Below are positions 4,509 to 50,225 of a stretch of 64,000 nt of DNA, in pieces. The first letter of the stretch is position 1. Each line of letters opens with the position of its first letter. The DNA lies in contig CBFIFL010000003.1 of assembly GCA_965661855.1 (NCBI GenBank), forward strand, positions 4,614 to 68,613, read 5' to 3'. The stretch comes from Flavobacteriales bacterium (lineage in GTDB: Bacteria; Bacteroidota; Bacteroidia; Flavobacteriales_C; CBFIFL01). The notes under the pieces are model-generated. The model worked only from the letters and a program-made list of their open reading frames with translations, had not been told where the DNA came from and did not search any database. A program made the position numbers and the translations under genes.

Positions 4509-4577
4509 TAGTTTTTAGAGATATAAAACTAATTGATATTCAGAAGAGAAATGAAAAGACTTAGGAAACGTAGAGAT

Positions 4578-4871
4578 CTAATTATACTTCCTAAAAATCT
4601 TTTTATCTGCAACAAAGGTTCCAAATGGTAGAAGAGATGCAATAAAACTTAATACTGCATCAATGAATTTCCACTTGTGTTTAGTTAATAGAATTAAAAG
4701 ATAGATGCAGTAAGCGATGAACAAAACACCATGAGCCATTCCGACTATTTTATTAGGACCAGGCATGTCGTAAGAATACTTTAATACCATGGTGATAGCC
4801 AAAAGTAAATAGCTAATTCCTTCTAATACAGCAATTAATCGGAATTGTTTAAGTGTTTTGTTGCTTGACAT
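4578..4871 (-). CDS. DUF3817-like small integral membrane protein.
   Basis: Three predicted TM helices, 97 aa. Its start overlaps the stop of the upstream gene (ATGA). Confidence 0.45.
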   Translation of the reverse strand: MSSNKTLKQFRLIAVLEGISYLLLAITMVLKYSYDMPGPNKIVGMAHGVLFIAYCIYLLILLTKHKWKFIDAVLSFIASLLPFGTFVADKKIFRKYN

Positions 4872-5266
4872 TATTTTAATTTTTTGATTAAATCATCCAT
4901 GTATTCTTCCCAAGATTTCAAAAGGGGAGAGTCTAAGAATAACTCTCTTATTTCTGAGTCTTTTTTTATTGACTTTGCTAATTGGGCAGCTGCTTTTATT
5001 TCCGTTTCTGAAAAAGAATACTCGCTTTTGGTAAGCCAATCCACTTTATCTGCTGGAAAAGTCTTGAAGTTATCCGTCTTTGCACTGGCTACTAATTCTA
5101 TAGCTGCTAAAGCTTCTGTGCATTCTTTTAATACAACATCATCTAAATCAGATAAGTCATTTAGGCTTTTGATAAGATTATTCACCGATTTGAAATCGTT
5201 GTTAGCTTCAATGTTCTTTAGCCATTCAATGGCGTCGTTATTGTCGAATGTGTTTACTCCCCACAT
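4871..5266 (-). CDS. Hypothetical protein (DUF4259-like), downstream of mutB in the same orientation.
   Basis: 131-aa ORF with good codon structure; 24-nt gap after the mutB stop. Confidence 0.4.
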   Translation of the reverse strand: MWGVNTFDNNDAIEWLKNIEANNDFKSVNNLIKSLNDLSDLDDVVLKECTEALAAIELVASAKTDNFKTFPADKVDWLTKSEYSFSETEIKAAAQLAKSIKKDSEIRELFLDSPLLKSWEEYMDDLIKKLK

Positions 5267-5290
5267 AAATTTTGTTTTATAGATTGAATT

Positions 5291-7417
5291 TTAGTCTTCT
5301 AATAAGATTTCTAAAATTTGGCAAGCTGCTTTAGCTATTACAGTTCCAGGGCCAAATACGGCTGCAACGCCATGATCAAAAAGGTAATCATAATCTTGCC
5401 TTGGAATAACTCCTCCTGCAACTACCATGATGTCTTCTCTTCCATATGCTGCTAGTTCCTTGATTACCTCAGGAACCAATGTCTTGTGTCCTGCCGCTAA
5501 TGAACTAACACCTAAAATATGAACGTCATTTTCGATTGCTTGTTTTGCTGCTTCTTTAGGAGTTTGAAATAATGGACCTATATCCACATCAAAACCTAAA
5601 TCTGCGAAAGATGTTGAAATTACTTTTGCTCCTCTATCATGTCCGTCCTGACCCATTTTAGCAACCATAATTCTTGGTCTTCTACCTTCTTCTTTTTCGA
5701 AAGTATCGCTTAATTCCTGAGCCTTTTTAAAATATTCGTCGTTCTGTGTCATCTCTGAAGAGTATACTCCGTTGATTGATTTAATTACTGCTTTGTATCT
5801 ACCAAAGTGTTTTTCCAAAGCATCAGAAATTTCACCAAGAGAAGCTCTAGCTCTGGCTGCATTTACAGCTAACTCCAGAAGGTTCCCTTCTCCTGTCTCA
5901 GCTGCAACACTTAAGGCAGCTAAGCAAGCAAAAACTTCCGTTTGATTTCTGTTGTCTTTTAAGTCTTTAAGTCTTTCGATTTGAGCCGTCCTAACCTTGG
6001 TGTTATCTACCTCAAGTGTTTCGATATCGTCTTCCTTTTCTAATTGGAATCGATTAACTCCAACAATCACATCTTGACCTGAATCGATTCTAGCTTGCTT
6101 TCTAGCTGCTGCTTCCTCAATTCTCATTTTCGGAATTCCTGTTTCAATAGCCTTCGCCATTCCACCAAGCTTATCAATTTCTTGAATATGCTCCCAAGCT
6201 CTGTCTGCAATGTCTTTTGTCAGTGATTCTACGTAATGTGAACCAGCCCAAGGATCAACTACTTTACAGATATCGGTTTCTTGTTGTAAGAATATTTGAG
6301 TGTTCCTTGCTATTCTAGCTGAAAAATCGGTTGGCAAAGCAATTGCTTCATCTAATGCATTGGTGTGTAAAGATTGTGTATGTCCAAGCGCAGCAGCACT
6401 GGCTTCAACACATGTTCTTGCCACGTTGTTAAAAGGATCTTGTTCTGTTAATGACCAACCAGAAGTTTGACAATGTGTACGCAAAGCCAAAGACTTTTCA
6501 TTTTTCGGATTAAATTGTTTTACCATTTTAGCCCACAACATTCTCGCAGCTCTCATCTTAGCAATTTCCATGAAATGATTCATTCCAATTGCCCAGAAAA
6601 AACTTAGTCTTGGCGCAAAAGTATCAATATCCATTCCAGCTTCGATTCCAGCTTTAATGTATTCTAATCCATCTGCTAGGGTATATGCCAATTCAATATC
6701 GGCAGTTGCACCAGCTTCTTGCATGTGGTATCCAGATATCGAAATGGAATTAAACTTCGGCATGTTCGCTGAAGTGTATTCAAAAATATCAGAGATAATT
6801 CTCATGGAAGGAGCAGGAGGGTATATGTAGGTGTTTCTAACCATGAATTCCTTTAGGATATCATTTTGGATAGTTCCACTCAATTGATCCTTACTTACTC
6901 CTTGTTCTTCAGCAGCAACAATATAGAATGCTAAGATGGGTAAAACAGCACCGTTCATAGTCATCGAAACAGACATCTTATCTAAAGGAATCTGATCGAA
7001 CAAGATTTTCATGTCAAGAATTGAATCTATTGCAACACCGGCTTTACCAACATCACCTAGTACTCTTTCATTGTCAGAATCGTATCCTCTATGCGTTGCT
7101 AAATCGAAAGCAACTGAAAGACCTTTTTGTCCGGCAGCTAAGTTTCTTCTGTAAAAAGCATTTGACTCTTCCGCTGTAGAAAATCCTGCATATTGTCTTA
7201 TCGTCCACGGACGCATAACATACATAGTGGCATAAGGACCTCTTAAAAAAGGAGGTACACCTGCAGCAAAATCTAAATGATCTAAGTCTTTAGAATCAGC
7301 TGAGTCATAAAACTTTTTGATCTGAATTTTTTCTGGTGTTAACCAAGAGCCTTCTTCTATTTGAACAGAAGAGTTAAATTCAGATTTTATATCGATGTTC
7401 TCAAAATTCGTTCTCAT
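5291..7417 (-). CDS. scpA: Methylmalonyl-CoA mutase large (catalytic, B12-binding) subunit.
   Basis: ...[47 protein letters not shown]... and a C-terminal B12-binding domain with ...GHDRGAKV... (DxHxxG). 708 aa. Confidence 0.9.
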
Positions 7418-8926: not shown

Positions 8927-10816
8927 ATGGAAGGATTTATTTATCTAGTACCGTTTATCATTTTATCATGGTTTGGTACTTCTTTCTTTTTTAAAGCTGC
9001 CGGAGAAAAACAATGGAAAGCTTTTATCCCTGTATACAATGTAATTGTATGGTTAAAGCTGATTAAAAAACCTACTTGGTGGGTGTTGTTGTCGTTTATT
9101 CCTGTAGTAAATATTGTTCTGTTTATAGGGATGGTGGTGGAGTTGTTAAACTCGTTTGGAATTAGAAACAAAGCTCAGCATGTAATAGCGGCAGTGGTGC
9201 CTTATATCTATTTACCTTATTTAGGTATGAAAGGTGGGTTGGCTCATACCGGACCAGTTGATTATTCAAATCAAAAGAAAGGTATCGCTAGAGAGTGGTC
9301 AGAAGCTTTGTTTTTCGCGATTATAGCTGCTACAGCAATTCGTGCCTTTGTTATTGAAGCGTTTGTGATTCCTACAGGATCGATGGAAAGAACTCTAAGA
9401 GTTTATGATTGTTTATTCGTTAATAAAATGAGTTACGGAACAAGATTTACAATGACTCCTTTATCGGTTCCATTTTCTCATCAAACAATCATGGGAACAA
9501 GCATTAAATCTTATACTGATTTTGTAAAAATTCCATACTTCCGTTTCCCTGCCTTTGAGGATATTGATAATGGGGATATGGTTGTTTTTAATTATCCGCA
9601 AGAAGACTATCATCCTATTGATAAGAGATCTCACTATATCAAAAGATGTCTTGGAACTCCAGGAGATTCTTTGGCTATTATTGATGGAGTGGTAAAAGTA
9701 AATGGGGAAGATTTTGTTAATGCAGATACTTATCAATTATCATATACTGTTTCAAGTTCTGTGATGCTTGGCGAACAGTTCTTTGAATTGTATGAAGTTG
9801 CACCTGATGATCGAAGGTATGTTCCTCATGGAAATACTTTTGTTTATGATATAGCTATGCCAGATAATATCGCTGAGCAAATGAAAAGCGAATCAGGAAT
9901 TACAGGTATTGTTAAAAATATTAAGCCAAGGGGAGCAGGAGGAGCAGTTTTTTATGATGAGTCTAAAACTGGAGAATGGACAGTAGATAACTTTGGTCCA
10001 ATTTACATGCCTCAAGCAGGAGACGTAATTAATATTAATGAAGATAACTTTGGTCAGTATAAGCGTTTGATTAATGTTTATGAGCATGGAGAGATCATTC
10101 GTTCTGAAGATTTATTAGTTCAAGCGGAGAAAATAAAAGAGCTTAATCAAGCTGTTAATAGTATCAATGTTACAGAGCTGTTTGTAAATGCAAATAAGGA
10201 TTATCGACTATTTAACGGTAGCAAAGGATCTTTCGGACAACTATATTCTATAGTGAACGGAGTTAAGGATAATTTTATTCACGTAGAGCTTCCAGGTGGA
10301 GTCTTAAAGTTAGCGGATCAGTTTTACTGGAAGGATAATGCTAACTACTCTGACGCTGATATGATAAACTTAGCTGATGACTTTAAATCATTTTTCGAAG
10401 AGAATTACAAGTCTCAATTAGAAGAATTAAAATCACTATATGCTCAATTTGAAAATGCTGGAGAAGACGTGTTTTTGATCAATGGTGAAATGACTAATAA
10501 GTACGAGGTAAAGCAAGGTTACTTTTTCATGATCGGAGATAACCGTCATCGTTCAGCAGATAGTAGAATGTGGGGGTATGTTCCAGAAAATCATATTGTT
10601 GGTAAGCCTGTTTTTGTATGGATGTCTTTGTCTAACACAACCGATGGTAATATTTTCGATAGAGTTCGTTGGGATAGAGTTTGTTCATTTGTAGATAGAG
10701 ACGGTTTGTCTAGATCTTATAAAATTGAAGTACTGATATTAATCTTACTTTGGACTGGATTCAATCAATTGTATTGGAAGCCGAAAAAGGCTAAAAAGAA
10801 GAAGCAATTGAACTAA
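8927..10816 (+). CDS. lepB: Signal peptidase I, long Bacteroidota form with an N-terminal multi-TM extension.
   Basis: Box E-type ...GDNRHRSADSRMWGYVPENHIVGKPVFVW..., SM (Ser) in ...PTGSMERTL..., and catalytic Lys in ...YIKRCLG... Confidence 0.8.
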   Translation: MEGFIYLVPFIILSWFGTSFFFKAAGEKQWKAFIPVYNVIVWLKLIKKPTWWVLLSFIPVVNIVLFIGMVVELLNSFGIRNKAQHVIAAVVPYIYLPYLGMKGGLAHTGPVDYSNQKKGIAREWSEALFFAIIAATAIRAFVIEAFVIPTGSMERTLRVYDCLFVNKMSYGTRFTMTPLSVPFSHQTIMGTSIKSYTDFVKIPYFRFPAFEDIDNGDMVVFNYPQEDYHPIDKRSHYIKRCLGTPGDSLAIIDGVVKVNGEDFVNADTYQLSYTVSSSVMLGEQFFELYEVAPDDRRYVPHGNTFVYDIAMPDNIAEQMKSESGITGIVKNIKPRGAGGAVFYDESKTGEWTVDNFGPIYMPQAGDVININEDNFGQYKRLINVYEHGEIIRSEDLLVQAEKIKELNQAVNSINVTELFVNANKDYRLFNGSKGSFGQLYSIVNGVKDNFIHVELPGGVLKLADQFYWKDNANYSDADMINLADDFKSFFEENYKSQLEELKSLYAQFENAGEDVFLINGEMTNKYEVKQGYFFMIGDNRHRSADSRMWGYVPENHIVGKPVFVWMSLSNTTDGNIFDRVRWDRVCSFVDRDGLSRSYKIEVLILILLWTGFNQLYWKPKKAKKKKQLN

Positions 10817-11415
10817 TGAAAGGATTGTTTTCTACAGCTTATTTTGGACCTGTTTCTTATTATCAAAAGCTTTTTCTGTCAGCAGATAAAAGACTTTTGG
10901 AGATAAACGAGTTTTTCGAAAAGCAATCATATAGAAATCGAGCGGTAATTCTAGGTGCTAATGGAAGGATGAACTTGATCATTCCGTTGGAAAAGCAAAT
11001 TCGAAATACCTTGATAAAAGATAGACGAATTGATCACCGAGAATCATGGCAATCTCAACATTTAAAAGGAATTATTTCAGCTTATAGATCGTCTCCATAT
11101 TTTGAGTTTTATGAAGAGGATTTTATGAAGCTTTTCGAAAAGAAAGACGAGTTCTTGCTTGATTTTAATTTAAGGTGTCATGATTTTATTGCGAGTGAAT
11201 TAGAGGAAGATTTATTTTTTGAAAAGACTACGGCTTTTGTAGAAGATTTTGATGGAGAAGTTTTCAAGAATACGATTCATCCAAAGAAAGAGTCTTTGTT
11301 GGAAGAAGTTCCTTATTATCAGGTGTTTGAAGAGAAACATGGTTTCCAATCCGATTTATCCATTTTAGATTTGTTATTTAGTCAAGGTCCGAATGCTATC
11401 AGTTATTTATATTAG
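10816..11415 (+). CDS. WbqC-family protein.
   Basis: N-terminus ...YFGPVSYYQKLF... is typical of WbqC-like proteins. TAATG-coupled to lepB. Confidence 0.6.
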   Translation: MKGLFSTAYFGPVSYYQKLFLSADKRLLEINEFFEKQSYRNRAVILGANGRMNLIIPLEKQIRNTLIKDRRIDHRESWQSQHLKGIISAYRSSPYFEFYEEDFMKLFEKKDEFLLDFNLRCHDFIASELEEDLFFEKTTAFVEDFDGEVFKNTIHPKKESLLEEVPYYQVFEEKHGFQSDLSILDLLFSQGPNAISYLY

Positions 11416-11522
11416 TGGATAGTGCATAGTGTGTGGGGTAAAGGGGACAAATTGCTTAAATAAAAGACCTTGTTTCCCAGATCTTTTTCCTAATCACTAA
11501 TCCCTACCTACTAAGCACTAAT
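11412..11522. repeat. Second copy of the inverted (TAGTG)n...(CACTAA)n element, upstream of accC.
   Basis: ttagtggatagtgcatagtgtgtgg ... ~50 nt ... cctaatcactaatccctacctactaagcactaat. Confidence 0.5.
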
Positions 11523-11528
11523 AAAAAG

Positions 11529-11536
11529 TATATTTG
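11529..11536 (+). promoter_or_regulatory. Candidate Bacteroidota sigma-A -7 box (TAnnTTTG) for the biotin carboxylase gene.
   Basis: TATATTTG lies 21 nt upstream of the ATG at 11557. It sits immediately downstream of the ACTAAGCACTAA repeat motif. Confidence 0.35.
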
Positions 11537-11556: not shown

Positions 11557-13035
11557 ATGAAAAAGATATTAATTGCTAATAGAGGAGAGATTGCGTTAAG
11601 AGTAATGCGTTCTGCTCGTGAAATGAATATTAAAACAGTTGCTATTTATTCAGAAGTAGATAGAACTGCACCTCATGTTAAATATGCAGATGAAGCGGTT
11701 TGTGTTGGACCAGCAGCATCATCAGAATCGTATTTAAGAGGAGATAAAATTATAGAAGTTTGTAAGGAACTTAACGTGGATGGAATACACCCAGGTTACG
11801 GTTTTTTAAGTGAAAATGCAGATTTCGCAAGAGCTGTAAGTAAGGCTGGATTAATATTAATTGGTCCGTCACCAGAAGCAATGGAAGTAATGGGAGATAA
11901 GTTAGCAGCAAAAACTGCTGTTAAAGCTTATGATATTCCGATGGTTCCAGGAACTGATGAGGCTATTACTGATGTTCCAGCGGCAAAGAAAATCGCAGAA
12001 GGAATCGGTTTCCCAATTTTGATCAAAGCATCTGCCGGTGGTGGAGGTAAAGGGATGAGAATTGTAGAGAATGCTGGTGAGTTTGAAGAACAAATGGATT
12101 TGGCTGTTTCAGAGGCAACCTCAGCATTTGGAGATGGTTCTGTTTTTATTGAAAAATACGTTGGATCACCAAGACATATTGAAATTCAAGTTTTAGCTGA
12201 TAACCATGGAAATGTGGTTCATTTATTTGAAAGAGAATGTTCTGTTCAAAGAAGACATCAAAAGGTTATTGAGGAAGCTCCTTCAGCTGTATTAACAGAT
12301 GAGATCAGAGAAGAAATGGGTCAATGTGCTGTTCGTGTTGCAAAAGCTTGTGACTATAGAGGAGCAGGTACTGTTGAGTTCTTATTGGATGAAGAAAAGA
12401 ATTTCTATTTCTTAGAGATGAACACGCGTTTACAAGTAGAACATCCTGTAACAGAAATGATCACAGGAGTTGATTTAGTGAAAGAGCAAATCAATGTTGC
12501 AAGAGGTGAGGAATTAAGCTTCAAACAAGAAGATTTAAAGATCAACGGACATGCAATGGAAGTTAGAGTTTACGCAGAGGATGCGAAAAACAACTTCTTA
12601 CCAGATATCGGAACACTTCAAACCTATTCAATTCCGAAAGGAAATGGTGTTAGAGTGGATGATGGATTAGAGCAAGGAATGGAGATTCCAATCTATTATG
12701 ATCCAATGATTGCTAAGCTAATTACTCACGGAGATACTCGTGAGGAAGCAATGGATCGAATGATTAGAGCTTGTGATGAATATGTGATTTCAGGATTAGA
12801 AACTACGCTTCCATTTGGAAAGTATGTTATGGAGCATGAAGCCTTCCGTTCAGGTAATTTCGATACTCACTTTGTTAAGAAGCATTTTGATGCTGATAAA
12901 TTAACAAACATGTCTGAGAAAGAAGCAGAAGTAGCAGCAATGGTTTTAGGTGGATTACTTAAAGAAAAATCAGAAGAAATTGTAGTTGCTAACAGTGATA
13001 TGGATTCAAACTGGCAGCAGAATAGAATGTTATAA
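11557..13035 (+). CDS. accC: Biotin carboxylase subunit of acetyl-/propionyl-CoA carboxylase (ATP-grasp).
   Basis: MKKILIANRGEIALRV..., ...GGGGKGMRIV..., ...EMNTRLQVEHPVTE... Confidence 0.85.
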   Translation: MKKILIANRGEIALRVMRSAREMNIKTVAIYSEVDRTAPHVKYADEAVCVGPAASSESYLRGDKIIEVCKELNVDGIHPGYGFLSENADFARAVSKAGLILIGPSPEAMEVMGDKLAAKTAVKAYDIPMVPGTDEAITDVPAAKKIAEGIGFPILIKASAGGGGKGMRIVENAGEFEEQMDLAVSEATSAFGDGSVFIEKYVGSPRHIEIQVLADNHGNVVHLFERECSVQRRHQKVIEEAPSAVLTDEIREEMGQCAVRVAKACDYRGAGTVEFLLDEEKNFYFLEMNTRLQVEHPVTEMITGVDLVKEQINVARGEELSFKQEDLKINGHAMEVRVYAEDAKNNFLPDIGTLQTYSIPKGNGVRVDDGLEQGMEIPIYYDPMIAKLITHGDTREEAMDRMIRACDEYVISGLETTLPFGKYVMEHEAFRSGNFDTHFVKKHFDADKLTNMSEKEAEVAAMVLGGLLKEKSEEIVVANSDMDSNWQQNRML

Positions 13036-13059
13036 TAGACTTTAAATAGTTGTAATAGT

Positions 13060-13092
13060 AAAAGCGCATCTTTTTTAGGTGCGTTTTTTTTG
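13060..13092 (+). terminator. Probable intrinsic terminator of accC.
   Basis: AAAAGCGCA-tcttttttagg-TGCGTTTTT: 9-bp stem including one G·U, followed by a U-run. Confidence 0.4.
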
Positions 13093-13300
13093 TGGTTATA
13101 TGGGAGGTTGAGGTTTAATAGATCCAAGATGCGGATCAAATGAAGGGGGATGGTTGGGCTACCATTATGTAAACCGCGATGTGGTTTGTACAACTCTTGT
13201 TAATTTACGGTACGCGTTAAATATTAAAACAAATCTGTGGAACCTGTGAAATCTGTGGACAAAAAAATAACCCAGTTTAATTGAGTAAAGGTTGGTTAGG

Positions 13301-13376
13301 AGTATTAATTGTTCGGGTGACCGCAAGGGTAGCCCCTACCATGATTGTAACATCACCGTAGGGGCTACCCTTGCGG
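13301..13376 (+). repeat. Long near-perfect inverted repeat: 29-bp arms, 18-nt loop, single T/C difference giving a U·G pair on the + strand.
   Basis: GTTCGGGTGACCGCAAGGGTAGCCCCTAC ... GTAGGGGCTACCCTTGCGGTCGCCCGAAC. The region is GC-rich relative to its surroundings and has no adjacent U-run. Confidence 0.6.
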
Positions 13377-13555
13377 TCGCCCGAACCAAACAACGAAAAT
13401 CTCCGATTTTCCCTCCGTGATATCCAATTGAAATAATTAACAGACGAGATTAGTCTATCCTTGTATCCGTGGTTAAACTTTAATGTGATTCGTTGAACTA
13501 AGGTAGTCTCTAAATAACAGACGGATGGTTCGACTCGGCTCACCAAGCGAGTAGT

Positions 13556-35955: not shown

Positions 35956-38900
35956 ATGCATAAAAAGCTATATCATATAGTGTTTTTGTGCCTTTTTGTT
36001 ATATCCTTAATTCCTAGTGAATTGAGGGGACAGGGTACTCAAGATTTTGAGAACGAAAAGGAACTCATAAAGGTAGCGGACAAACACTTCGAAAAAGAAG
36101 AGTTTGTATCGGCGCTTTTTATGTACTCTCAATTGGCGTCAACATATCCAAAAAATTACGAATACAATTATCGCTACGGAGTCTGTTTATTATACGGTTC
36201 TGAGGATAAATCAAGTCCCATTATTTTCCTGAATTATGCTCTTGAAGGTCCTGATGTTTCTCCTAAAGTCTATTATTACTTAGGAAAGTCTTATCATCTA
36301 AGCTATCGCTTTGATCAAGCCATTAAATACTATAAACTATTTGAATTGAAGTATGCTGAGAAAGACTTTATGAGGTTTGAAACCGATCGATTGATCCAAC
36401 AATGTGAGACGGCTAAGTCGATGTTGGATAATATCAAGGAAATCAATGTTTACGATAAAAAGACATTGGATGATAAGGAATTCTTTAGAGCTTATCGTTT
36501 AGAAGGTTTTAAAGGAAATATACTTGTTGTACCTGTTGAAATTCAGTCTGATTATGATATCAAGAAGGAGTTTAAAACAGTAACCTTCCATAATCCAAAT
36601 TATGAGTCCATTTACTTTGCTTCTAAAGGAAAGAAAGGAAGTGGAGGTTCTGATATATATAAGAGGAATAAACTGGTTACAGGTGTTTGGGGAGAACCAA
36701 TAGCTCTTGGAATGAATGTTAACACTCGTTACGATGAGAACTATCCTTTCTTACATCCGGATGGAGTAACGCTTTATTTCTGTTCGAAAGGACATAATTC
36801 AATTGGTGGATATGATGTGTTTAAATCGAAGTTAGATACTGCCACTAATATCTGGGGTAAACCAAGCAACGTAGGTTTTGCTATTAACTCACCTGGGGAT
36901 GATATTATGTATGTGACCGATGAGTTTAAGAACGCAGCTTATTTTGCCTCTAATCGTTCGAACAGACAAGGAGAGATTACAATTTATAAGATAACGAGTG
37001 ATAAGAAAACGAAGAATTATAAGGTTATCAAAGGTTTACTTAATCAGGATGAACAACCTTTAGCTAATTCAGAGATTACAGTATTTGATTCAAAGACAGG
37101 GGAAGTTGTCGGAGTTTATCAATCTGATTTTGACGGTGAGTACTATATAACCATTCCGGAAGATGTTACAGAAATCGTTTATGAAGTCAAACTGAGAGGA
37201 GAGAAAACGGTGAGACAAGAAATAAGCGGATTAAGCGATGAAGGCTACGAACAGAAAATATCAATTGATTCAGAGTCTTTATCAATGATCATTACAGAAT
37301 CTGAACCAATTGAAATTTCAGCTGATGATAAGGCCAATGCTTTAGCTCAGAACTCATCTCTGAATGTTAATCAAGCTGAAGATATCGCATTTAACACCAA
37401 GCCTATTAATTATAACGCTAATGAGGAGGAAGAGGAGGAAGAGGCTGAAGCGGTTGAGGAAGTCGAACAATCTGCCTTTTCTGCAGATACGGATTATACT
37501 ATTGATACCGATTCTGATTCTGATAATGAATCAGAATCAGAGTTTGTAGCTTCTAATACACAAATAGTTGACGATGCCTATCAAGATGCTGAAGAATCAA
37601 GGCTAGATGTTGAGAATATTAAAAAGCAGTTGGACGTTGCATACATGATTGCATCGGATAAGAATGAGAAAGCGAAAAGACTAGCTAGTGATATTCAAAA
37701 GTTAAACAAGGACTTAGAAGCAGGGTACGACGAAGAAAAGGCGATGGAAGTTTCTGCTAAAGAAGCAGAGCTTACGAAGCTTAAACAAGAGGTTTTGGTT
37801 ACTTATAATGTAGCTAAGAATCTAGAAGAGAACTACAAGAATAAAGAGGAAGAGGCTGTATTTGCACAGAAGTATGCAGACGATTTAAAGGAGGCTATTT
37901 CATTATCAAGTGCAGAAAAAGCAATTGAGATGTTAGAGTCGACTCGAGAAGAGTTAGACCGTATCTATAAAAAGAACAAGGATGCTTTTAATATTGATGA
38001 TTTAGGTGGTGATGCTGATGAGAAAATTGTATCTCTAAAACAATTGTCTCAAGATGTGGATTCTGAAATTAGTGCTATCGTAGAGGAGCAAACAGCTATT
38101 AAGCAAAGAGCTGAAGAAGAAACAGAGGATTATGTGAAGCAGTCTATTTTACTGGAGGCAGAAGACTTAGAAGAAGAGTTGATTACTTTAAGATCAAAGA
38201 AGTCCAAAATCGACGGAGAGTTAGCTTCTATTGAATCGGAACAACAACAATTTACGGAGAACCAAGAAATATTTGATGAGATTGCTTCAGCTGAATCAAG
38301 AAACTTCAGTATGGAAGAGATTCAAAAGGCTGAAGAGGCTAAGAGTGATTTAAGTAAGGATGTTGAAATCTACGCGAATAGTGAAACAACTGAAGACATG
38401 ATTGAGAGTTTAGCTGATGAAAATGAAGGAGAATTAGCAATAACATCGGATGATGAGAATCCAAGTTTGGATGAAATAAATGAGCATTTTGATGAGATAG
38501 AGGAGAAGGAAGAATTCAGTCCGGTTGAAAAACTTGCAGAGTTAAACGGTAAAGTGAAAATTCAGGAAAGAAGGTTGAGGTCTAAAAAGGAAGAATTGGA
38601 TATTTTGGAAAGTACACTTGAAAACGAAACAGACTTGAATGTTAAATCTGATATCTACAAACAATTGGTGATTCTAGTGAACAAGACAGAAGAAGAGATG
38701 GATCGTTTGAAGGAATTACAAGGGGATTACAATGCTTACAATGAACAGGAAGGTTTGAATCAGCCTGACTTAGAAATTAAGGAGACAGTCGTTGAATCGG
38801 TTGTTCTGAGTGATTCAGGGGAAATGATCGATTTTGATACTTTCTTAGAAGAAATAGAGGCAGAGCAATTAGCATCAGCGAATGCTGAAGAAAGTGAGAG

Positions 38901-41900
38901 TGGAAGCGATGATGCAATTGTAGCTGTGAGTCCTGATGTCACGGAAGTAATTGAAGTAGAGGCAGACGAGTTAAATGGTAATACGGATTCGGTGGATTTA
39001 GCAACGGAAATAGATGAGCCTTCAGACGAGGAGGAAGCTGTTGAACTGAGTGATGAAGAAATTGCCAGTAGTTCTTTTGAAACGTTAAATGAAGAGCAAC
39101 AGCTTTATAAATTGGAGCTTGAATTCGATATGGATTCATCAAGTAATGAAGATGTTCAACGAGGTTTAGAGTTAGCTTTCGGACTTAAAACGGATCCGAA
39201 TTTTGAATACGGTCCTAATGCAATTGTTCAAGCAAACGTAAATAACGCTAGAAGATTGGAACGTCAAGCCTTAAATACTTATCTACTGTTTAAAAAGAAA
39301 AGAAAAGAGGCGGATGAGCAAATAAAAGCATCTAAGGCCAAGAAGATGATTGAGGAAGCGATTGAATTAGAAAGTGAATCTAAACGTTTACAAGAAAGTG
39401 CTTCAGCTAATTACGCTATTGCAAACAAGGAGGAGTTCAAGTACAACCAAACTCAATTGAGAACAGCAATTGCAACGTTTAAATTTGAAGAGACACCAGA
39501 ATACTCCGTTGATAGAAAAGCTGGAGAGGTTTTGATTGAAGAAACAACAAGAATCAGATCAGCTTTAATGACAACTTATGATGCTGATGAAAGAATTAAA
39601 AAAATCAATGATGCTTATAATAAAGAGTTAGCGGCGATCGCAGGACAAAAGAAGTATGTGGAGCGTTTAGGTCAAGAAGAGGACGTGGAAGAGTCGTTTG
39701 TTTACTTGAATGAAGGAGAAAGTAACCCGACAAATGAAGACTTAGAAAGTGGTCAATCAGAAACGGAGAATACTGACGAAATCGAGAGTGTGAGTGCAGA
39801 AGAAGGTCCGTTTATAGCTGGGACAGATGAGGAGGTTTTATCAATGGAAGAAGTTAATTCAATGAGTGATGAAGAGTTGTTGACAAAAGCGGATAATCAA
39901 ACGATTGAAGGAATCGCGAGTACTGCTTTAAATATCAGATCAAATATTTCTACAGCTCCAGAAGAAGATAAAGCTAAGTTGATGCAACGAGCGGCTTTGT
40001 TAGAAGAAGTTGCTAGAACGAAAAGATTGAAGTTTGTTCAGAAAGAATACAACGATTACTTGTTGATGCTGAAGAAGAATGAAGAGGTTAGAAGAAGAAT
40101 GGCTATGCGTGATGAAAATAGCGAGGCTTTATTCTTAGTAGGATTGGTAGAAAGAGACATTAAAACTCAAACGGAGGCATTAGAGAAAAGTAAGGAAGAT
40201 TTAGATTTGTATTCTGGAGAAACACAGATCAGTGCATATAAAACAGCCTTGTTAAACCAACAAATGATAATCAATAAGCAAACTCAGGTATTAAAGACAT
40301 ACGCCGAGAAAAATCCTGCAGTAAGTACTGAGGATTTGGCTTATGTAAATGCTTTACCAGATACGATTCAGAATGTATCATCTAATTTTGTAATCGTCGA
40401 TTCAAATGACCCAGATTTACTGATTACTGATAGTCCTGAAGAAGTAAGTCCTGAAGTAGAAGTTGTTGAACCAGAAATTGCTTCAACTGAAATACCAGAA
40501 CCTGCTGTTATAAGTGGTGAAGAAGAAGGTGAAGGTGATGAAGAAGCTAATGAGGAATTGGCTTTAAACATCCAAACAGAGAACAATACAGAGGAAGGCG
40601 AGGAGCTAACTGTTGGTGATAGTGATGAGTCGGATGAAAATAACGAGCTTGTTAATGAGGAGATAGCTAGTGAAGTAGTTTCTGAAACTGCTGTTGATTC
40701 AAATGAAGAAATTCAGAGTCCTGTTGTTGAAGAAGTTGCAGTAGCACCAGTTACTGAAGAGGAAGAAGCCTTGAGTCCAGAGGTTCAAGAGCAACTGAAA
40801 ATATACACGCAGTTAAAAGCGAAGTCACTTAAAGAGTATACGGTAGTTGAATCGGATATTCAAAAAGCTCAAGAGATTCAGAATGAAGCAATAGAATTAG
40901 AGAATGAGGCAGATAATAAATTAAGACAAACAGAGTCTGCTCAAACTGAAGCTGAAATTGAGGCATTGATTGCAGAATCAGATAAGTTAAGAGCTAAAGC
41001 AATTGACAAAAGAAAGAAAGCAAATCGTTTGGCGGCTAAAGTGGATAACGATTTAGCTTCAGCTAAAAGCGTTTATAGAGAAGCTCAGAAAGTATTGAAT
41101 TCTGATGTGGTTCAAGCAAATGTTGAAGATGGAGATCGTATTGATATTGATTACACCAGTATTGAAAGACAAAGAGAGTCCATTGAGGCAGTAGATGAGT
41201 TTGTTGCTGAGTTAGAATCAAACAGAGCGGCAAATCAAAACACAAGTTCATCAAGAACCATAACAGCTCCATTTGAAAGTGAATATATTGTTTTGAATGG
41301 TGACGCGAAATATTCTGATGCGAATCCAATACCTATAGATCCAGCTATGCCAGAAGGTTTAGTGTTTAAGGTTCAGGTAGGAGCATTTAGAAATAAGATT
41401 CCACAAGACTTGTTTAAAGGAATTGCTCCATTACAAGGGGAGTCTACTCCTCAAGGATTTATTAGATATACAGCTGGAGCATTTAGTGGATTTGAGCCAG
41501 CCAATATGGCTAAGCGAGAGATTAGAAAAATTGGATATAAAGATGCTTTTGTTGTTGTTTACTTAAATGGTAGACGAATTTCATTAGGAGAAGCATTTGC
41601 CATGATGGATAATGAATCTCCAAATGATAAGTCTGTTAGATCAACACAAATTAACAAAGAAGTACAAGAGTTAAATGGAGCGGGAATAGGAGAGTCTTAC
41701 AGAGATCCAAGCATAGCAGAGTTAGTTCAAGATATCAATGAGACTAAAGGTGTAATGTATACGGTGCAGATTGGTTATTACTCTGAGTCTATTCAACCTG
41801 AGAACTTATTCAATTTAGATCCAATTTACGAAGACGATAATGATGGAGGTTATAGATACATGCATGGGATTTATAAGGATTTGAAAGCTGCTTCTAATCG

Positions 41901-42303
41901 TAAGACAGAAGTTAGAGCAATTGGAATCGAAGATGCATTCGTAATAGCTTATAAGGACGGTAATAAGATTTCAGTGGCCGATGCTAATCGTTTGATTGAT
42001 GAAGGAGCCTCTACTGTGGATGGCTCAAAGGAGTATAAGTTGAATACGGAGAATACTTCTGGAATTGTCTATAAAGTTCAAGTAGGTGCCTACTCTCAGC
42101 AAGTACCATTAGAAAGAGCTATGATATTTGTTCAGTTTGCGGATCAGGGCATAGAGCACTTCCAAAATGCAAATGGACTTACAATCTATAGTATTGGTGG
42201 CATGGATTCATACCAAGCTGCCCAATCGTTGAAAGAAACAATTCAAGCAGCTGGTATCGTAGATGCTTTCATTACTAAATACAGTAACGGGAAGAGGTTG
42301 TAA
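35956..42303 (+). CDS. Giant (2115 aa) cell-envelope protein: signal peptide, TPR-like helical region, PD40/TolB-like β-propeller repeats, ~1400-aa acidic (E/D-rich) coiled-coil/low-complexity spacer, three C-terminal SPOR domains.
   Basis: Signal MHKKLYHIVFLCLFVISLIPSELRGQ; PD40-like ...SDIYKRNKLVTGVWGEPIALGMNVNTRYDENYPFLHPDGVTLYFCS...GGYDVFKS...; SPOR-like ...LVFKVQVGAF..., ...YTVQIGYY..., ...IVYKVQVGAY... each followed by ...DAFV... segments. Confidence 0.7.
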   Translation: MHKKLYHIVFLCLFVISLIPSELRGQGTQDFENEKELIKVADKHFEKEEFVSALFMYSQLASTYPKNYEYNYRYGVCLLYGSEDKSSPIIFLNYALEGPDVSPKVYYYLGKSYHLSYRFDQAIKYYKLFELKYAEKDFMRFETDRLIQQCETAKSMLDNIKEINVYDKKTLDDKEFFRAYRLEGFKGNILVVPVEIQSDYDIKKEFKTVTFHNPNYESIYFASKGKKGSGGSDIYKRNKLVTGVWGEPIALGMNVNTRYDENYPFLHPDGVTLYFCSKGHNSIGGYDVFKSKLDTATNIWGKPSNVGFAINSPGDDIMYVTDEFKNAAYFASNRSNRQGEITIYKITSDKKTKNYKVIKGLLNQDEQPLANSEITVFDSKTGEVVGVYQSDFDGEYYITIPEDVTEIVYEVKLRGEKTVRQEISGLSDEGYEQKISIDSESLSMIITESEPIEISADDKANALAQNSSLNVNQAEDIAFNTKPINYNANEEEEEEEAEAVEEVEQSAFSADTDYTIDTDSDSDNESESEFVASNTQIVDDAYQDAEESRLDVENIKKQLDVAYMIASDKNEKAKRLASDIQKLNKDLEAGYDEEKAMEVSAKEAELTKLKQEVLVTYNVAKNLEENYKNKEEEAVFAQKYADDLKEAISLSSAEKAIEMLESTREELDRIYKKNKDAFNIDDLGGDADEKIVSLKQLSQDVDSEISAIVEEQTAIKQRAEEETEDYVKQSILLEAEDLEEELITLRSKKSKIDGELASIESEQQQFTENQEIFDEIASAESRNFSMEEIQKAEEAKSDLSKDVEIYANSETTEDMIESLADENEGELAITSDDENPSLDEINEHFDEIEEKEEFSPVEKLAELNGKVKIQERRLRSKKEELDILESTLENETDLNVKSDIYKQLVILVNKTEEEMDRLKELQGDYNAYNEQEGLNQPDLEIKETVVESVVLSDSGEMIDFDTFLEEIEAEQLASANAEESESGSDDAIVAVSPDVTEVIEVEADELNGNTDSVDLATEIDEPSDEEEAVELSDEEIASSSFETLNEEQQLYKLELEFDMDSSSNEDVQRGLELAFGLKTDPNFEYGPNAIVQANVNNARRLERQALNTYLLFKKKRKEADEQIKASKAKKMIEEAIELESESKRLQESASANYAIANKEEFKYNQTQLRTAIATFKFEETPEYSVDRKAGEVLIEETTRIRSALMTTYDADERIKKINDAYNKELAAIAGQKKYVERLGQEEDVEESFVYLNEGESNPTNEDLESGQSETENTDEIESVSAEEGPFIAGTDEEVLSMEEVNSMSDEELLTKADNQTIEGIASTALNIRSNISTAPEEDKAKLMQRAALLEEVARTKRLKFVQKEYNDYLLMLKKNEEVRRRMAMRDENSEALFLVGLVERDIKTQTEALEKSKEDLDLYSGETQISAYKTALLNQQMIINKQTQVLKTYAEKNPAVSTEDLAYVNALPDTIQNVSSNFVIVDSNDPDLLITDSPEEVSPEVEVVEPEIASTEIPEPAVISGEEEGEGDEEANEELALNIQTENNTEEGEELTVGDSDESDENNELVNEEIASEVVSETAVDSNEEIQSPVVEEVAVAPVTEEEEALSPEVQEQLKIYTQLKAKSLKEYTVVESDIQKAQEIQNEAIELENEADNKLRQTESAQTEAEIEALIAESDKLRAKAIDKRKKANRLAAKVDNDLASAKSVYREAQKVLNSDVVQANVEDGDRIDIDYTSIERQRESIEAVDEFVAELESNRAANQNTSSSRTITAPFESEYIVLNGDAKYSDANPIPIDPAMPEGLVFKVQVGAFRNKIPQDLFKGIAPLQGESTPQGFIRYTAGAFSGFEPANMAKREIRKIGYKDAFVVVYLNGRRISLGEAFAMMDNESPNDKSVRSTQINKEVQELNGAGIGESYRDPSIAELVQDINETKGVMYTVQIGYYSESIQPENLFNLDPIYEDDNDGGYRYMHGIYKDLKAASNRKTEVRAIGIEDAFVIAYKDGNKISVADANRLIDEGASTVDGSKEYKLNTENTSGIVYKVQVGAYSQQVPLERAMIFVQFADQGIEHFQNANGLTIYSIGGMDSYQAAQSLKETIQAAGIVDAFITKYSNGKRL

Positions 42304-47493: not shown

Positions 47494-48162
47494 TTAGCTT
47501 TTGTTTAATTGTCCACCCAACACGTATTGAACAATGTTAGCTCCCATCTGAAGAGCTTCTTGTCTTTTGGCTGAACTATCTTTATGAACAGATGAATCTT
47601 CCCATCCATCACCTAAATCACTTTCTGAAGTATAGTATAATACTATTCTTCCCTCATGGATAATAGCTAAGCCTTGTGGCGCTTTTTTATCGTGTTCATG
47701 AATCTTTGGTAATCCTTTCGGGAATTTAAACTTCTGATGGTATATCGGATGATTAGCAGGAAGCTCAATAAGTTTATATTCAGGGAACACTTTTTTTATT
47801 TCAGCTTTAACAAAAGCGTCCATACCATAGTTGTCATCGATGTGAAGAAAACCACCTCCTAAAAGGTACTTTCTTATATTTTCTCTTTCCTGTGAGTTGA
47901 ATACGACATTTCCATGTCCTGTCATATGAATAAAAGGGTAGTTGAATATGTCGCTACTACCCACAGCAACGGTTGCTACACTTTTATTGATATTACTTTT
48001 TAACTCTTTGTTACAAAACTTAACCAGGTTAGGAACGGAGGTAGGGTTGGCATACCAGTCACCACCACCATTGTATTTTAATACGGCAAACGAATAAGAG
48101 CTTTTGATTTGTAAAGCTGAAAAGCCTAAAGCTAATAATAAGACGAATAGTAATCTAATCAT
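47494..48162 (-). CDS. DUF4159 family protein.
   Basis: ...FAVLKYNGGGDWYANPTSVPNL... Overlaps rsmE by 8 nt. Confidence 0.55.
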   Translation of the reverse strand: MIRLLFVLLLALGFSALQIKSSYSFAVLKYNGGGDWYANPTSVPNLVKFCNKELKSNINKSVATVAVGSSDIFNYPFIHMTGHGNVVFNSQERENIRKYLLGGGFLHIDDNYGMDAFVKAEIKKVFPEYKLIELPANHPIYHQKFKFPKGLPKIHEHDKKAPQGLAIIHEGRIVLYYTSESDLGDGWEDSSVHKDSSAKRQEALQMGANIVQYVLGGQLNKS

Positions 48163-48859
48163 TGTTTATCATATGAAATGCGTGAACACTAACTATACCA
48201 GCTGTTTCATTTCTCAATCTAGTTTTTCCTAGGTCAATACCTTGAAATCCCTTTTCGTATGCCTGCTTGATTTCGGGAGAACTGAAATCTCCTTCAGGAC
48301 CAATTAACAACACCGCGTCACCTCCTTTTTTATAGCTGGCTTTTATGGATAGTTTAGGAAGGTCTTCACAATGCGCTATCAATTTTTGTCCCTGCCAATC
48401 CTTTGACATAAAATCTTTAAATGATATCATCGGATGAAGAATAGGTTTTTTAGCTTTCAGGCATTGCTTCATTGCAGCAATTACTTTTTTCTCCGCTCTT
48501 TCCAAGTTGACTTTATTTTTAATGCAATGATCACTTAAAATAAAACTGATTTCTGACACTCCAATTTCCGTTACTTTTTCAAGCATAAATTCTAAACGGT
48601 CTAAGCTTTTAATTGGAGCAATGGCTAAATGAAGATGAAAACCCATATCATCATCGTTCATGAATCGCTCTATTATATTTAGCTCACACTTTTTTGGATG
48701 GTCGGATAGGATAGAACAAATGAATCTATTCCCCTTTCCATCTACAACTTGTACTTGATCACCTACAGATTTTCTCAAAACACGAACAGCGTGCTTAGAA
48801 TCATTTTCATCTAAGAAAAACGTATCACCAGTGATATTAGGACAGTAAAATGAGTTCAT
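48155..48859 (-). CDS. rsmE: 16S rRNA (uracil1498-N3)-methyltransferase.
   Basis: N-terminal PUA-like domain ...HAVRVLRKSVGDQVQVVDGKGN... and a SPOUT C-terminus ...LLIGPEGDFS... Confidence 0.8.
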   Translation of the reverse strand: MNSFYCPNITGDTFFLDENDSKHAVRVLRKSVGDQVQVVDGKGNRFICSILSDHPKKCELNIIERFMNDDDMGFHLHLAIAPIKSLDRLEFMLEKVTEIGVSEISFILSDHCIKNKVNLERAEKKVIAAMKQCLKAKKPILHPMISFKDFMSKDWQGQKLIAHCEDLPKLSIKASYKKGGDAVLLIGPEGDFSSPEIKQAYEKGFQGIDLGKTRLRNETAGIVSVHAFHMINND

Positions 48860-48881: not shown

Positions 48882-48988
48882 CTTAGTGCTTAGTGAATAG
48901 TGAGTGGTTATTGACCGAGTGAGGTGTTAAACTGTGTTAATAATATACATTCCACTAACCACTAACCACTAACCATTAACCACTAAAT
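48882..48988. repeat. Inverted heptamer arrays: (NTTAGTG)x3 ... ~45-nt spacer ... (CCACTAA)x5, between the thiolase terminator and the rsmE start.
   Basis: cttagtgcttagtgaatagtgagtgg ... ccactaaccactaaccactaaccattaaccactaa. Shares the 12-mer ACTAAGCACTAA with the accC upstream region (11510-11521). Confidence 0.6.
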
Positions 48989-48994
48989 CATAGA

Positions 48995-49022
48995 CATAAA
49001 AAAGGGACCCAAATGAGTCCCT
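48995..49022 (-). terminator. Rho-independent terminator of the thiolase gene (minus strand).
   Basis: Minus strand GGGACtcatttgGGTCCC followed by ttttttat. Confidence 0.6.
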
Positions 49023-49046
49023 TTTCTGTATATAATTAAAATAAAA

Positions 49047-50225
49047 TTATAGTTTCTCAAGAACTACAGCAGAAGCACCACCACCACCATTACAGATACC
49101 AGCAGCTCCAATTTTAGCATTGTTTTGATCCAATACATTGATTAACGTAACTAAGATTCTCGCACCAGAACATCCAAGTGGGTGACCTAATGAAACAGCT
49201 CCACCATTCACGTTTGTTTTTGTACTGTCAATTCCTAATTCTTTCATATTAGCTAAACCAACAACTGAAAACGCTTCATTTAACTCATAAAAGTCAACGT
49301 CACCAGCAGAGATTCCTGCTTTTTCGATTGCCTTAGGAACAGCTTTTGAAGGAGCAGTAGTAAACCATTCAGGAGCTTGAGCAGCATCAGCATATGATCT
49401 AACCTTAGCGATAGGAGTTAATCCTAACTCTTCCATTTTTTCTTTTGAGCAAAGAACTAAAGCAGCAGCACCATCATTAAGTGTAGACGCATTTGCAGCA
49501 GTTACAGAACCGTCTTTTTGGAATACAGGTCTTAAAGCTGGAATTTTTTCCATCTTCACATTTTTGTATTCTTCATCTTCTGTCATTAATAAAGGATCAC
49601 CTTTTCTTTGAGGGATTTCAACTGGAACGATTTCATTGTTGAATTTTCCAGCTTCCCAAGACTTAGCTGATCTGTTGTAAGATTCGATTGCGAAATTATC
49701 TTGATCTTCTCTAGAGAAGTTATACTCCTTAGCACAAAGCTCAGCAGCATTTCCCATGTGATAGTTATTGTAAACGTCAGTTAAACCATCTAAAACTAAA
49801 CCATCTTTGATTTTAACATCACCTAACTTTGAACCGAATCTTTGGTTCATGTTATAATATGGTACAGCAGACATGTTTTCCATTCCACCAGCAATTACTA
49901 AGTCTTGATCTCCAAGAGCAATAGCTTGAGCAGCTAACATAACAGACTTCATTCCAGAAGAACAAACTTTGTTAATAGTAGTACAAGGAACATCCTGACT
50001 AAGACCAGCGAACATAGCAGCCTGTCTAGCAGGAGCTTGACCTAATCCAGCAGATAATACATTACCCATAAATACTTCATCTACCTGATCAGCAGCGATG
50101 TTTACTTTGTCTAATGCACCCTTAATAGCAGTAGCTCCTAATTTAGTAGCTGAAATTTTTGCCAATTTTCCACCAAAACTTCCCATTGGAGTTCTAACAG
50201 CAGAAACAATATATACTTCTTTCAT
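49047..50225 (-). CDS. Acetyl-CoA C-acetyltransferase (thiolase II).
   Basis: ...VCSSGMKSV... (active Cys), ...NVNGGAVSLGHPLGCSGARI..., ...CNGGGGASA... Confidence 0.9.
   Translation of the reverse strand: MKEVYIVSAVRTPMGSFGGKLAKISATKLGATAIKGALDKVNIAADQVDEVFMGNVLSAGLGQAPARQAAMFAGLSQDVPCTTINKVCSSGMKSVMLAAQAIALGDQDLVIAGGMENMSAVPYYNMNQRFGSKLGDVKIKDGLVLDGLTDVYNNYHMGNAAELCAKEYNFSREDQDNFAIESYNRSAKSWEAGKFNNEIVPVEIPQRKGDPLLMTEDEEYKNVKMEKIPALRPVFQKDGSVTAANASTLNDGAAALVLCSKEKMEELGLTPIAKVRSYADAAQAPEWFTTAPSKAVPKAIEKAGISAGDVDFYELNEAFSVVGLANMKELGIDSTKTNVNGGAVSLGHPLGCSGARILVTLINVLDQNNAKIGAAGICNGGGGASAVVLEKL

Follow-up and report, generated by a model that had tools for sequence, protein, structure and literature searches.

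Results

Inverted heptamer arrays at two loci

Two inverted arrays of 7-nt repeats were analyzed in a 64,000-nt stretch of DNA from a Flavobacteriales bacterium (contig CBFIFL010000003.1, positions 4,614 to 68,613 of the forward strand; hereafter the window), which has a G+C content of about 35.5%. The first, element A, lies between a WbqC-family gene and a biotin carboxylase (accC-like) gene, and the second, element B, lies between a thiolase gene and rsmE (Table 1). An earlier note made from this DNA had described inverted heptamers at accC and rsmE, had singled out a 12-mer common to both places, ACTAAGCACTAA, and had suggested a dispersed regulatory or repeat element. The inverted architecture is present in the sequence at both loci, and the earlier description needed only small corrections. 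Both elements follow a common plan of three TAGTG-type heptamers followed by GTGG, a spacer of 48-55 nt, and five CACTAA-type heptamers. The five-unit arm faces accC in element A, and the three-unit arm faces rsmE in element B. The two copies of the 12-mer do have the same orientation relative to their genes, as the note remarked, and this is due to the inverted repeat; the elements as a whole are placed oppositely.

The name accC is backed by the biotin carboxylase domains found in the product. The arrays are short and intergenic, except that the WbqC-family gene takes its TAG stop codon (11413-11415) from the first heptamer of element A. No terminator separates this gene from accC, and the sequence after the element A arm is TAAAAAG. 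Element B is situated between the putative thiolase terminator and rsmE, and the sequences flanking its arms are GTAAAAT or ATCATAG. A terminator scan revealed no terminator-like site in either element region; the same scan missed the thiolase hairpin, which is read as a terminator from its sequence and from a matching hairpin in relatives.

Two exact copies of ACTAAGCACTAA are present in the window, one at each locus, and the distance of 35 nt to the accC ATG was confirmed. Its proximity to the rsmE ATG also held, at a measured distance of 23 nt instead of the 24 nt given before. The 12-mer does not directly abut the -7 box of accC as had been stated; a gap of 7 nt separates it from TATATTTG. 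Comparison with shuffled sequence, a check that the earlier note had proposed, was carried out on the window and showed enrichment: four matches to ACTAAGCACTAA with at most one mismatch were found against 0.44 expected, and none of 100 shuffles reached four. For TAGTGNNTAGTGNNTAGTG, which represents three TAGTG units at 7-nt spacing, five matches with at most one mismatch were obtained, all within element A or B, against 0.00 expected from shuffling. The hexamer CACTAA alone was not enriched in the window (30 occurrences against 37 expected), indicating that the signal is the periodic array and not the word. ACTAAGCACTAA consists of two adjacent CACTAAN units whose variable base is shared by chance, and it is also present within an unrelated heptamer array (L035). 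Judged by this composition, the common 12-mer is a by-product of the common heptamer and not an independent signal.

When elements A and B were aligned in both orientations, the spacers were unrelated and the heptamers alone aligned, indicating that the elements are not recent copies of one another. The inverted arms of A and B, 18-33 nt long, are 73-85% complementary. The folding energies of element A were -29.1 and -31.8 kcal/mol on the two strands (z -1.7 and -2.7 relative to shuffled sequence), and those of element B were -32.0 and -30.9 kcal/mol (z -3.8 and -3.2). A scan of the whole window against Rfam at the gathering score gave no match and no rRNA, and at E values up to 10 locus A gave chance-level matches alone (E above 2).

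Table 1. Genes and sequence features at the loci of elements A and B, with positions in the window.
Feature	Position	Strand	Remarks
WbqC-family gene	10816-11415	+	
Element A, 5' arm	11412-11432		TTAGTGG ATAGTGC ATAGTGT, three heptamers
Element A, spacer/loop	11433-11487		55 nt, begins GTGG
Element A, 3' arm	11488-11522		TCCTAAT CACTAAT CCCTACC TACTAAG CACTAAT, five degenerate heptamers
12-mer ACTAAGCACTAA	11510-11521		In element A 3' arm; 35 nt before accC ATG
TATATTTG, Bacteroidota-type -7 box of accC-like gene	11529-11536	+	Context outside element A; 28 nt before ATG 11557
Biotin carboxylase (accC-like) gene	11557-13035	+	ATG 11557
rsmE	48155-48859	-	ATG at 48859; PF04452 and PUA domain in product
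Element B, three-unit arm	48883-48903		TTAGTGC TTAGTGA ATAGTGA; adjoins rsmE start
12-mer copy in element B	48883-48894	-	23 nt from rsmE ATG
Element B, spacer/loop	48904-48951		48 nt, begins GTGG
Element B, five-unit arm	48952-48986		CCACTAA CCACTAA CCACTAA CCATTAA CCACTAA (fourth unit deviates)
Putative intrinsic terminator of thiolase gene	48996-49025	-	G+C-rich hairpin then T run, GGGACTCATTTGGGTCCCTTTTTT on minus strand
Thiolase gene	49047-50225	-	

Variation among strains and relatives

The window comes from an uncultured marine bacterium. AccC and RsmE proteins identical to those of the window occur in many seawater metagenome contigs, and among named relatives AccC is closest (about 77% identity) to that of Flavobacteriales metagenome-assembled genomes (MAGs). 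Six same-species contigs covering locus A depart from the window at two single bases and are otherwise identical. One of these two differences makes the second unit TTAGTGC in the six strains (arm TTAGTGG TTAGTGC ATAGTGT). A sister species (L177), with an AccC 94% identical to that of the window, has the same gene order and a WbqC-accC spacer of 193 nt instead of 141 nt. The conserved part of this spacer is the last ~30 nt before the accC ATG, which comprise TATATTTG and a leader ending in ACTTGATCAATG. The rest is replaced by another heptamer hairpin, in which CCACTAG CCACCAG CCACTAG is followed, after about 100 nt, by CTAGTGG CTTGTGG (z -3.6). The C-terminus of WbqC reads ...SYLY* in the window (11407-11415) and ...SYLDL* in L177 (2795-2807), indicating that the variable segment starts inside the last WbqC codons. 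Judging from this pair of species, the element occupying a particular intergenic site is replaced on a genus-level time scale. AccC orthologues at 77-78% identity were not syntenic and are therefore uninformative on locus A. Between its biotin carboxylase and CoA-transferase genes, L177 also has two extra genes (4569-6103), one for a protein of 214 aa and one for an Omp28-family protein; these are absent from the window (13036-13555).

At locus B, the element was present in all ten contigs of the same species. One of them (L188) has a six-unit arm (+7 nt), compared with five units in the window and in the nine other contigs. The innermost unit is TTAATGG instead of TTAGTGG in nine contigs, and the spacer shows single-base strain differences (CACTCGG, CACTAAG or CACTAGG on the minus strand). 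ACTAAGCACTAA did not vary among the six contigs of locus A or among the ten of locus B. In two more distant relatives, L192 (RsmE 85% identical) and L274 (83%), degenerate yet 7-periodic versions follow the same thiolase terminator and have the spacer motif AAAAAGTGTTAA in common. In L191 (RsmE 83%), the contig begins 78 nt before rsmE, and a terminator-like hairpin without heptamers was found in that interval, which is weak evidence of absence. In L275 (RsmE 66%), rsmE lies 15 nt after a different gene and no element was observed. This comparison of strains and relatives indicates that the element at locus B is old, prone to slippage, evolving by gain and loss of units together with point mutation, and dispensable for rsmE.

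The same architecture in other genomes and phages

Viral contigs were searched with a pattern of two TAGTG units, 35-65 nt, and two CTAA..ACTAA units. The pattern matched 50 stretches, many of which are long (TTAGTGR)n...(YCACTAA)n hairpins. A scan of genomes, one per species, for TAGTGNNTAGTGNNTAGTGNGTGG yielded chiefly (TAGTGAG)n arrays from other phyla, and TAGTG arrays were present in at least 120 loci of the scanned genomes (L057-L176). Among the matches listed were Cyanobacteria, Bacteroidota (Flavobacteriaceae, a Cryomorphaceae MAG, Saprospiraceae, Chitinophagaceae), Alphaproteobacteria (Mesorhizobium, Brevundimonas), Acidobacteriota, Gemmatimonadota, Planctomycetota, Verrucomicrobiota, and others. 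The earlier proposal of a dispersed repeat with a higher-order inverted architecture was thus borne out, as this architecture recurs far beyond the window in many genomes and viral contigs.

Among the matches listed and away from locus edges, an inverted partner was located within 250 nt downstream in 27 of 108 arrays and upstream in none. The arms of these matches therefore stand in the order 5'-(TAGTGNN)n...(NNCACTA)n-3' in a ratio of 27:0, and elements A and B have the same order. Since the order is identical on both strands, the direction of transcription or replication does not explain it. The paired arrays found elsewhere mostly lack an open reading frame (ORF), and their spacers measure 22-141 nt. 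The genes flanking 71 paired elements, taken from a crude ORF call, were co-directional in 45 cases, divergent in 14, and convergent in 12. The element class has no exclusive promoter or terminator context.

One phage-like contig, IMGVR_UViG_3300006226_000108 (L040 3037-4187, L047 1238-5528), carries at least five heptamer hairpins with the same loop, AGAAAAAGCAAAGACCAAAGCAGTCTTTTGTCTTTTAC. All of its genes are on one strand, and the heptamer hairpins occupy most of the intergenic gaps. Three of the five hairpin copies lie just 5' of AAGGAGG-type ribosome-binding sites, and one 3' arm has 25 units.

Some TAGTGAG arrays, in loci from Calothrix, Aquibium, and a cyanobacterial MAG (L064, L072, and L095), precede arrays of another heptamer (CCCTATT, CGCCATT, or GGAGTTA) whose complementarity is partial or absent. 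Intergenic regions with mixed heptamers therefore exist.

Association of heptamer arrays with PF05635 genes

PF05635 is the 23S rRNA intervening-sequence protein (S23p), which is related to the Avd four-helix bundle. Five PF05635 ORFs were identified in the loci of the scanned genomes (L092, L107, L156, L167, and L173; E 1e-31 to 1e-35). All five, one of which comes from a Flavobacteriaceae MAG, are bracketed in the order array, ORF, inverted array.

As an independent test, 80 metagenome loci (L193-L272) were picked solely by protein similarity, with a three-sequence PF05635 alignment as the query. Among the 67 loci having at least 200 nt on both sides of the gene, 49 showed a period-7 array in one or both flanks, and in 36 the two flanks had an exact 11-mer inverted match to each other. 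Period-7 arrays were present in 77 of 147 PF05635 flanks (52%) and in 3 of 192 distal control segments (1.6%). For periods of 5, 6, 8, 9, and 10, the same 147 flanks gave 0, 2, 7, 0, and 0 arrays, respectively. Upstream arrays were G-rich rather than C-rich by 28:7, and downstream arrays were C-rich rather than G-rich by 36:9. The arrays in these flanks had a median of 4.3 units, with a range of 3 to 17 and a mode of 4.

Other features around the window

A very long ORF of 2115 aa occupies 35956-42303 on the plus strand, where GC skew and AT skew are both strongly positive. Just past the right-hand boundary of the window (L276 8910-11290), two small BLUF-domain ORFs and a response-regulator/HATPase gene are located directly upstream of the photolyase-family gene (62349-63638) with which the window closes. 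This neighbourhood may be a light-sensing cluster.

Discussion

Elements A and B very probably belong to the class of heptamer-array hairpins that bracket PF05635 genes. The assignment is based on the arrangement of their sequence: in both elements a G/T-rich array with a GTG core stands on the 5' side and a complementary array with a CAC core stands on the 3' side. They also have the properties of heptameric simple repeats, namely at least three tandem 7-nt units above chance and a one-unit step in copy number between strains. Overall, we favor as moderately probable the reading that A and B are ORF-less members of a slippage-prone class of heptamer-array hairpins related to 23S rRNA intervening sequences. 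Neither element is an insertion in helix 9, 25, or 45 of 23S rRNA; both lie between protein-coding genes. They are probably not gene-specific regulatory sites.

It is quite possible that A and B are neutral or selfish repeats with no function for the host, and a repeat of this kind is about as likely as a functional one. A role in processing or insulation at the RNA level can be suggested more tentatively, by analogy. The element would be transcribed together with the neighbouring genes, and pairing of the transcribed arms would give an imperfect stem some 40 bp long (-29 to -32 kcal/mol). A double-strand-specific RNase, RNase III for instance, could take such a stem as its substrate, and the stem might be cut or bound as double-stranded RNA. 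Cutting could separate and uncouple the adjacent messages or stabilize them, as may be compared with rRNA intervening sequences, the hmw leader, and the T7 intergenic sites.

Several observations weigh against the favored reading. Searching the ORFs of the window with the PF05635 profile (hmmsearch) gave no match, and A and B are themselves ORF-less. No further copies were found in the window or in the 10 kb past its right end, which leaves two in ~74 kb. Folding of the sense strand had no advantage over the antisense strand in A and B, nor in 45 elements between co-directional genes (21 versus 24, p = 0.33); there is thus no G-U signature of selection on the RNA. The hairpins of L192 and L274 are decayed, and their predicted folds have no advantage over shuffled sequence (z +1.0 and -1.0), which fits neutrality as well as any function. 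In the hairpin of L177 (2827-2958), the CCACTAG arm comes first and the CTAGTGG arm second, an exception to the 27:0 order. Finally, in both elements a -7-like box follows the outermost CACTAA-type units at a distance of 7-10 nt, TATATTTG at accC and TAATTTTA at rsmE.

A wider extension of the favored reading is speculative and, in our estimate, unlikely. Heptamer-array hairpins and PF05635 genes would form one ancient, horizontally spreading cassette system, in which ORF-less copies such as A and B would be non-autonomous derivatives. The polarity of the arms would be fixed because the ring-shaped PF05635 protein, or else RNase III, would recognize them in the form of RNA or single-stranded DNA. 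If true, this would account for the excess of intergenic heptamers in bacteria, for how rRNA intervening sequences arose, and for what the PF05635 family does.

It is improbable that A and B are miniature inverted-repeat transposable elements (MITEs) that arrived by transposition, with the heptamer arrays acting as terminal inverted repeats for a transposase encoded elsewhere. Terminal inverted repeats are present in both elements, and the fixed arm order among the matches listed is what defined element ends would produce. The copies with the same loop in the phage-like contig point to copy-and-paste spread, and presence, absence, or replacement of the element differs between related species. 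However, the spacers of A and B are unrelated, and copies with a common internal sequence were found in that one unrelated phage-like contig. The arms vary in unit number and the ends are not fixed. Inspection of the flanks of A and B, which was unsystematic, revealed no obvious target-site duplication, and there was no close empty site to fix the boundaries. No transposase is linked to the class, and the sole gene found inside the arms encodes a small four-helix-bundle protein. The suggestion of a small MITE in the earlier note is neither supported nor excluded.

We also regard as rather unlikely that the arrays are RNA or single-stranded DNA binding sites of a ring-forming PF05635 protein, with one heptamer per subunit and with ORF-less copies that titrate or recruit the protein. 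The tight association of PF05635 genes with period-7 arrays, compared with the control segments, would suit such binding. In Xanthomonas, S23p forms a homopentameric ring whose subunits are four-helix bundles, as cited in PMC4990558, and A and B each have a five-unit arm. Against this, the unit numbers of the arrays beside PF05635 genes extend from 3 to 17 with a mode of 4 and not 5, the window contains no PF05635 gene, and S23p of Coxiella is apparently not made in vivo (PMC4990558).

A gene-specific role, either as a binding-site array for a dimeric transcription factor or as a repeat co-opted as an upstream promoter part of accC and rsmE in which the 12-mer would be functional, appears distinctly unlikely. 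The closeness of the outermost CACTAA-type units to the -7-like boxes and the invariance of the 12-mer in the same-species contigs fit this explanation. A contribution of these units to promoter function is possible, and the comparative data argue against it. TAnnTTTG boxes, the -7 element of Bacteroidota, were found 12-40 nt before the start in 12 of 47 genes (examples at 2871, 11529, 33919, and 50514), with ~0.08 expected per 150 nt. Since the host promoters are of this type, the '-35-like position' that the note had assigned to the 12-mer has no clear meaning. The sole -7-like box of rsmE, TAATTTTA, stands 13 nt before the ATG and would imply a nearly leaderless mRNA. A sigma-70 promoter scan was blank at element A, a point against a promoter there, and yet the scan is uninformative in a host that uses TAnnTTTG boxes.

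Conservation in orthologous promoters, as expected of an operator or promoter, was not found in L177, L192, or L274. In the sister species, the -7 box and leader of accC are retained, and both the element and the 12-mer are absent. Relatives with 83-85% identical RsmE carry decayed versions, and the relative at 66% has none, in an upstream region that is differently arranged. The number of units is polymorphic at locus B, and the half-arrays lie ~50 nt apart, unlike operator half-sites. In addition, elements of this type are found in convergent, divergent, and tandem contexts and around PF05635 genes. The claim of a regulatory or promoter site is therefore not sustained, and the result removes a tempting, probably wrong inference of a common regulator for accC and rsmE.

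Plain slippage-derived simple-sequence repeats, with the inversion and the common 12-mer arising by chance, are very hard to credit: in many bacteria no other long simple repeat is as over-represented as the heptamer, and a 7-nt indel occurs among the strains, but the two loci share the same heptamer, the 3+5 plan, and the arm order, no three-unit array was expected by chance, the partner order elsewhere is uniform among the matches listed, and the folds are more stable than those of shuffled sequence (z down to -3.8).

With A and B placed in the class of slippage-prone heptamer-array hairpins, the kind of element to which they belong is already known but poorly understood. Heptamers have been recognized as over-represented since a 2007 report and have had no accepted explanation, and the S23p family has been without a function for ~30 years. 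In the searchable literature we found nothing on TTAGTGG arrays, on a fixed arm order, or on a general flanking of PF05635 genes by heptamers, the Coxiella intervening sequence excepted. Neither the fixed order of a G/T-rich arm followed by a C/A-rich arm, nor the near-exclusive period-7 flanking of PF05635 genes, nor the occurrence of ORF-less copies between ordinary genes in a marine Flavobacteriales genome was found described in that literature.

Comparison with known systems

According to PMC4679880 and PMC4692102, which cite Mrazek 2007, many bacteria have heptamers in greater excess than any other long simple repeat; slippage was proposed, and these sources mention little further work. 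TAACTGA repeats have been described from Beggiatoaceae, Cyanobacteria, and Bacteroidetes including Flavobacteriia (Gramella, Aequorivita, Elizabethkingia) (MacGregor 2015, PMC4679880). The elements of the window resemble such intergenic heptamer repeats, among them TAACTGA and the cyanobacterial STRR (short tandemly repeated repetitive) sequences, in their 7-nt tandem units, in their 7-nt copy steps, and in their absence at the same site in relatives. They differ in the unit, which is TTAGTGN here, in the shortness of the arrays (3 and 5 units), and in being an inverted pair around a spacer. The Maribeggiatoa genome has 169 direct heptamer sets and one indirect set (PMC4679880).

The GGGAATC repeats of Xanthomonas (Rehm et al. 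2015, PMC4692102) are likewise intergenic and often consist of two convergent arrays able to form a stem-loop or cruciform. They also vary in length and sequence between close species, like those described here. In contrast, the Xanthomonas unit is a G-rich heptamer proposed to form a quadruplex, it belongs to another phylum, and no link to PF05635 is described (PMC4692102).

The 23S rRNA intervening sequence of Coxiella burnetii is a selfish element of 428 nt that includes an S23p ORF and has a 28-bp stem formed from complementary ends (Warrier et al. 2016, PMC4990558). At its 5' end are tandem heptamers in strain-variable number, the first of which is the place where RNase III cuts (PMC4990558). 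Intervening sequences of this kind, from Coxiella and Leptospira (PMC4990558), are alike in the long stem formed by complementary ends, and PF05635 genes elsewhere are bracketed by arrays like those of the window. Elements A and B differ in lying between protein-coding genes, in lacking an ORF, and in having a unit other than the Coxiella GACAGAT.

In the hmw leader of Haemophilus influenzae, a transcribed (ATCTTTC)n array forms a long hairpin that is cut by RNase III, and the hairpin is required for change in repeat number (Rapun-Araiz et al. 2025, PMC12721329). A heptamer array within a long hairpin and a variable repeat number are common to this 5' untranslated region and to the elements described here. 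The partner arm of hmw, however, is a G-rich region and not an inverted array, and its repeats, at least 11 in number, tune the expression of one adhesin.

Repetitive extragenic palindromic (REP) sequences, the REPINs built from them, and MITEs are also short, dispersed, intergenic sequences whose presence or absence differs between relatives and whose inverted arms are able to fold into hairpins. Unlike these, A and B have 7-nt arrays of variable number instead of a fixed palindrome of 20-40 nt, their internal sequence is not common, and no REP-type transposase is linked to them. Their units read TTAGTGN or ATAGTGN and lack the GTAG head that is a feature of REP sequences.

In the early operon of phage T7, imperfect long RNase III hairpins stand in the gaps between genes of one direction. 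The phage-like contig carries its heptamer hairpins in comparable gaps; the T7 sites are not tandem heptamers.

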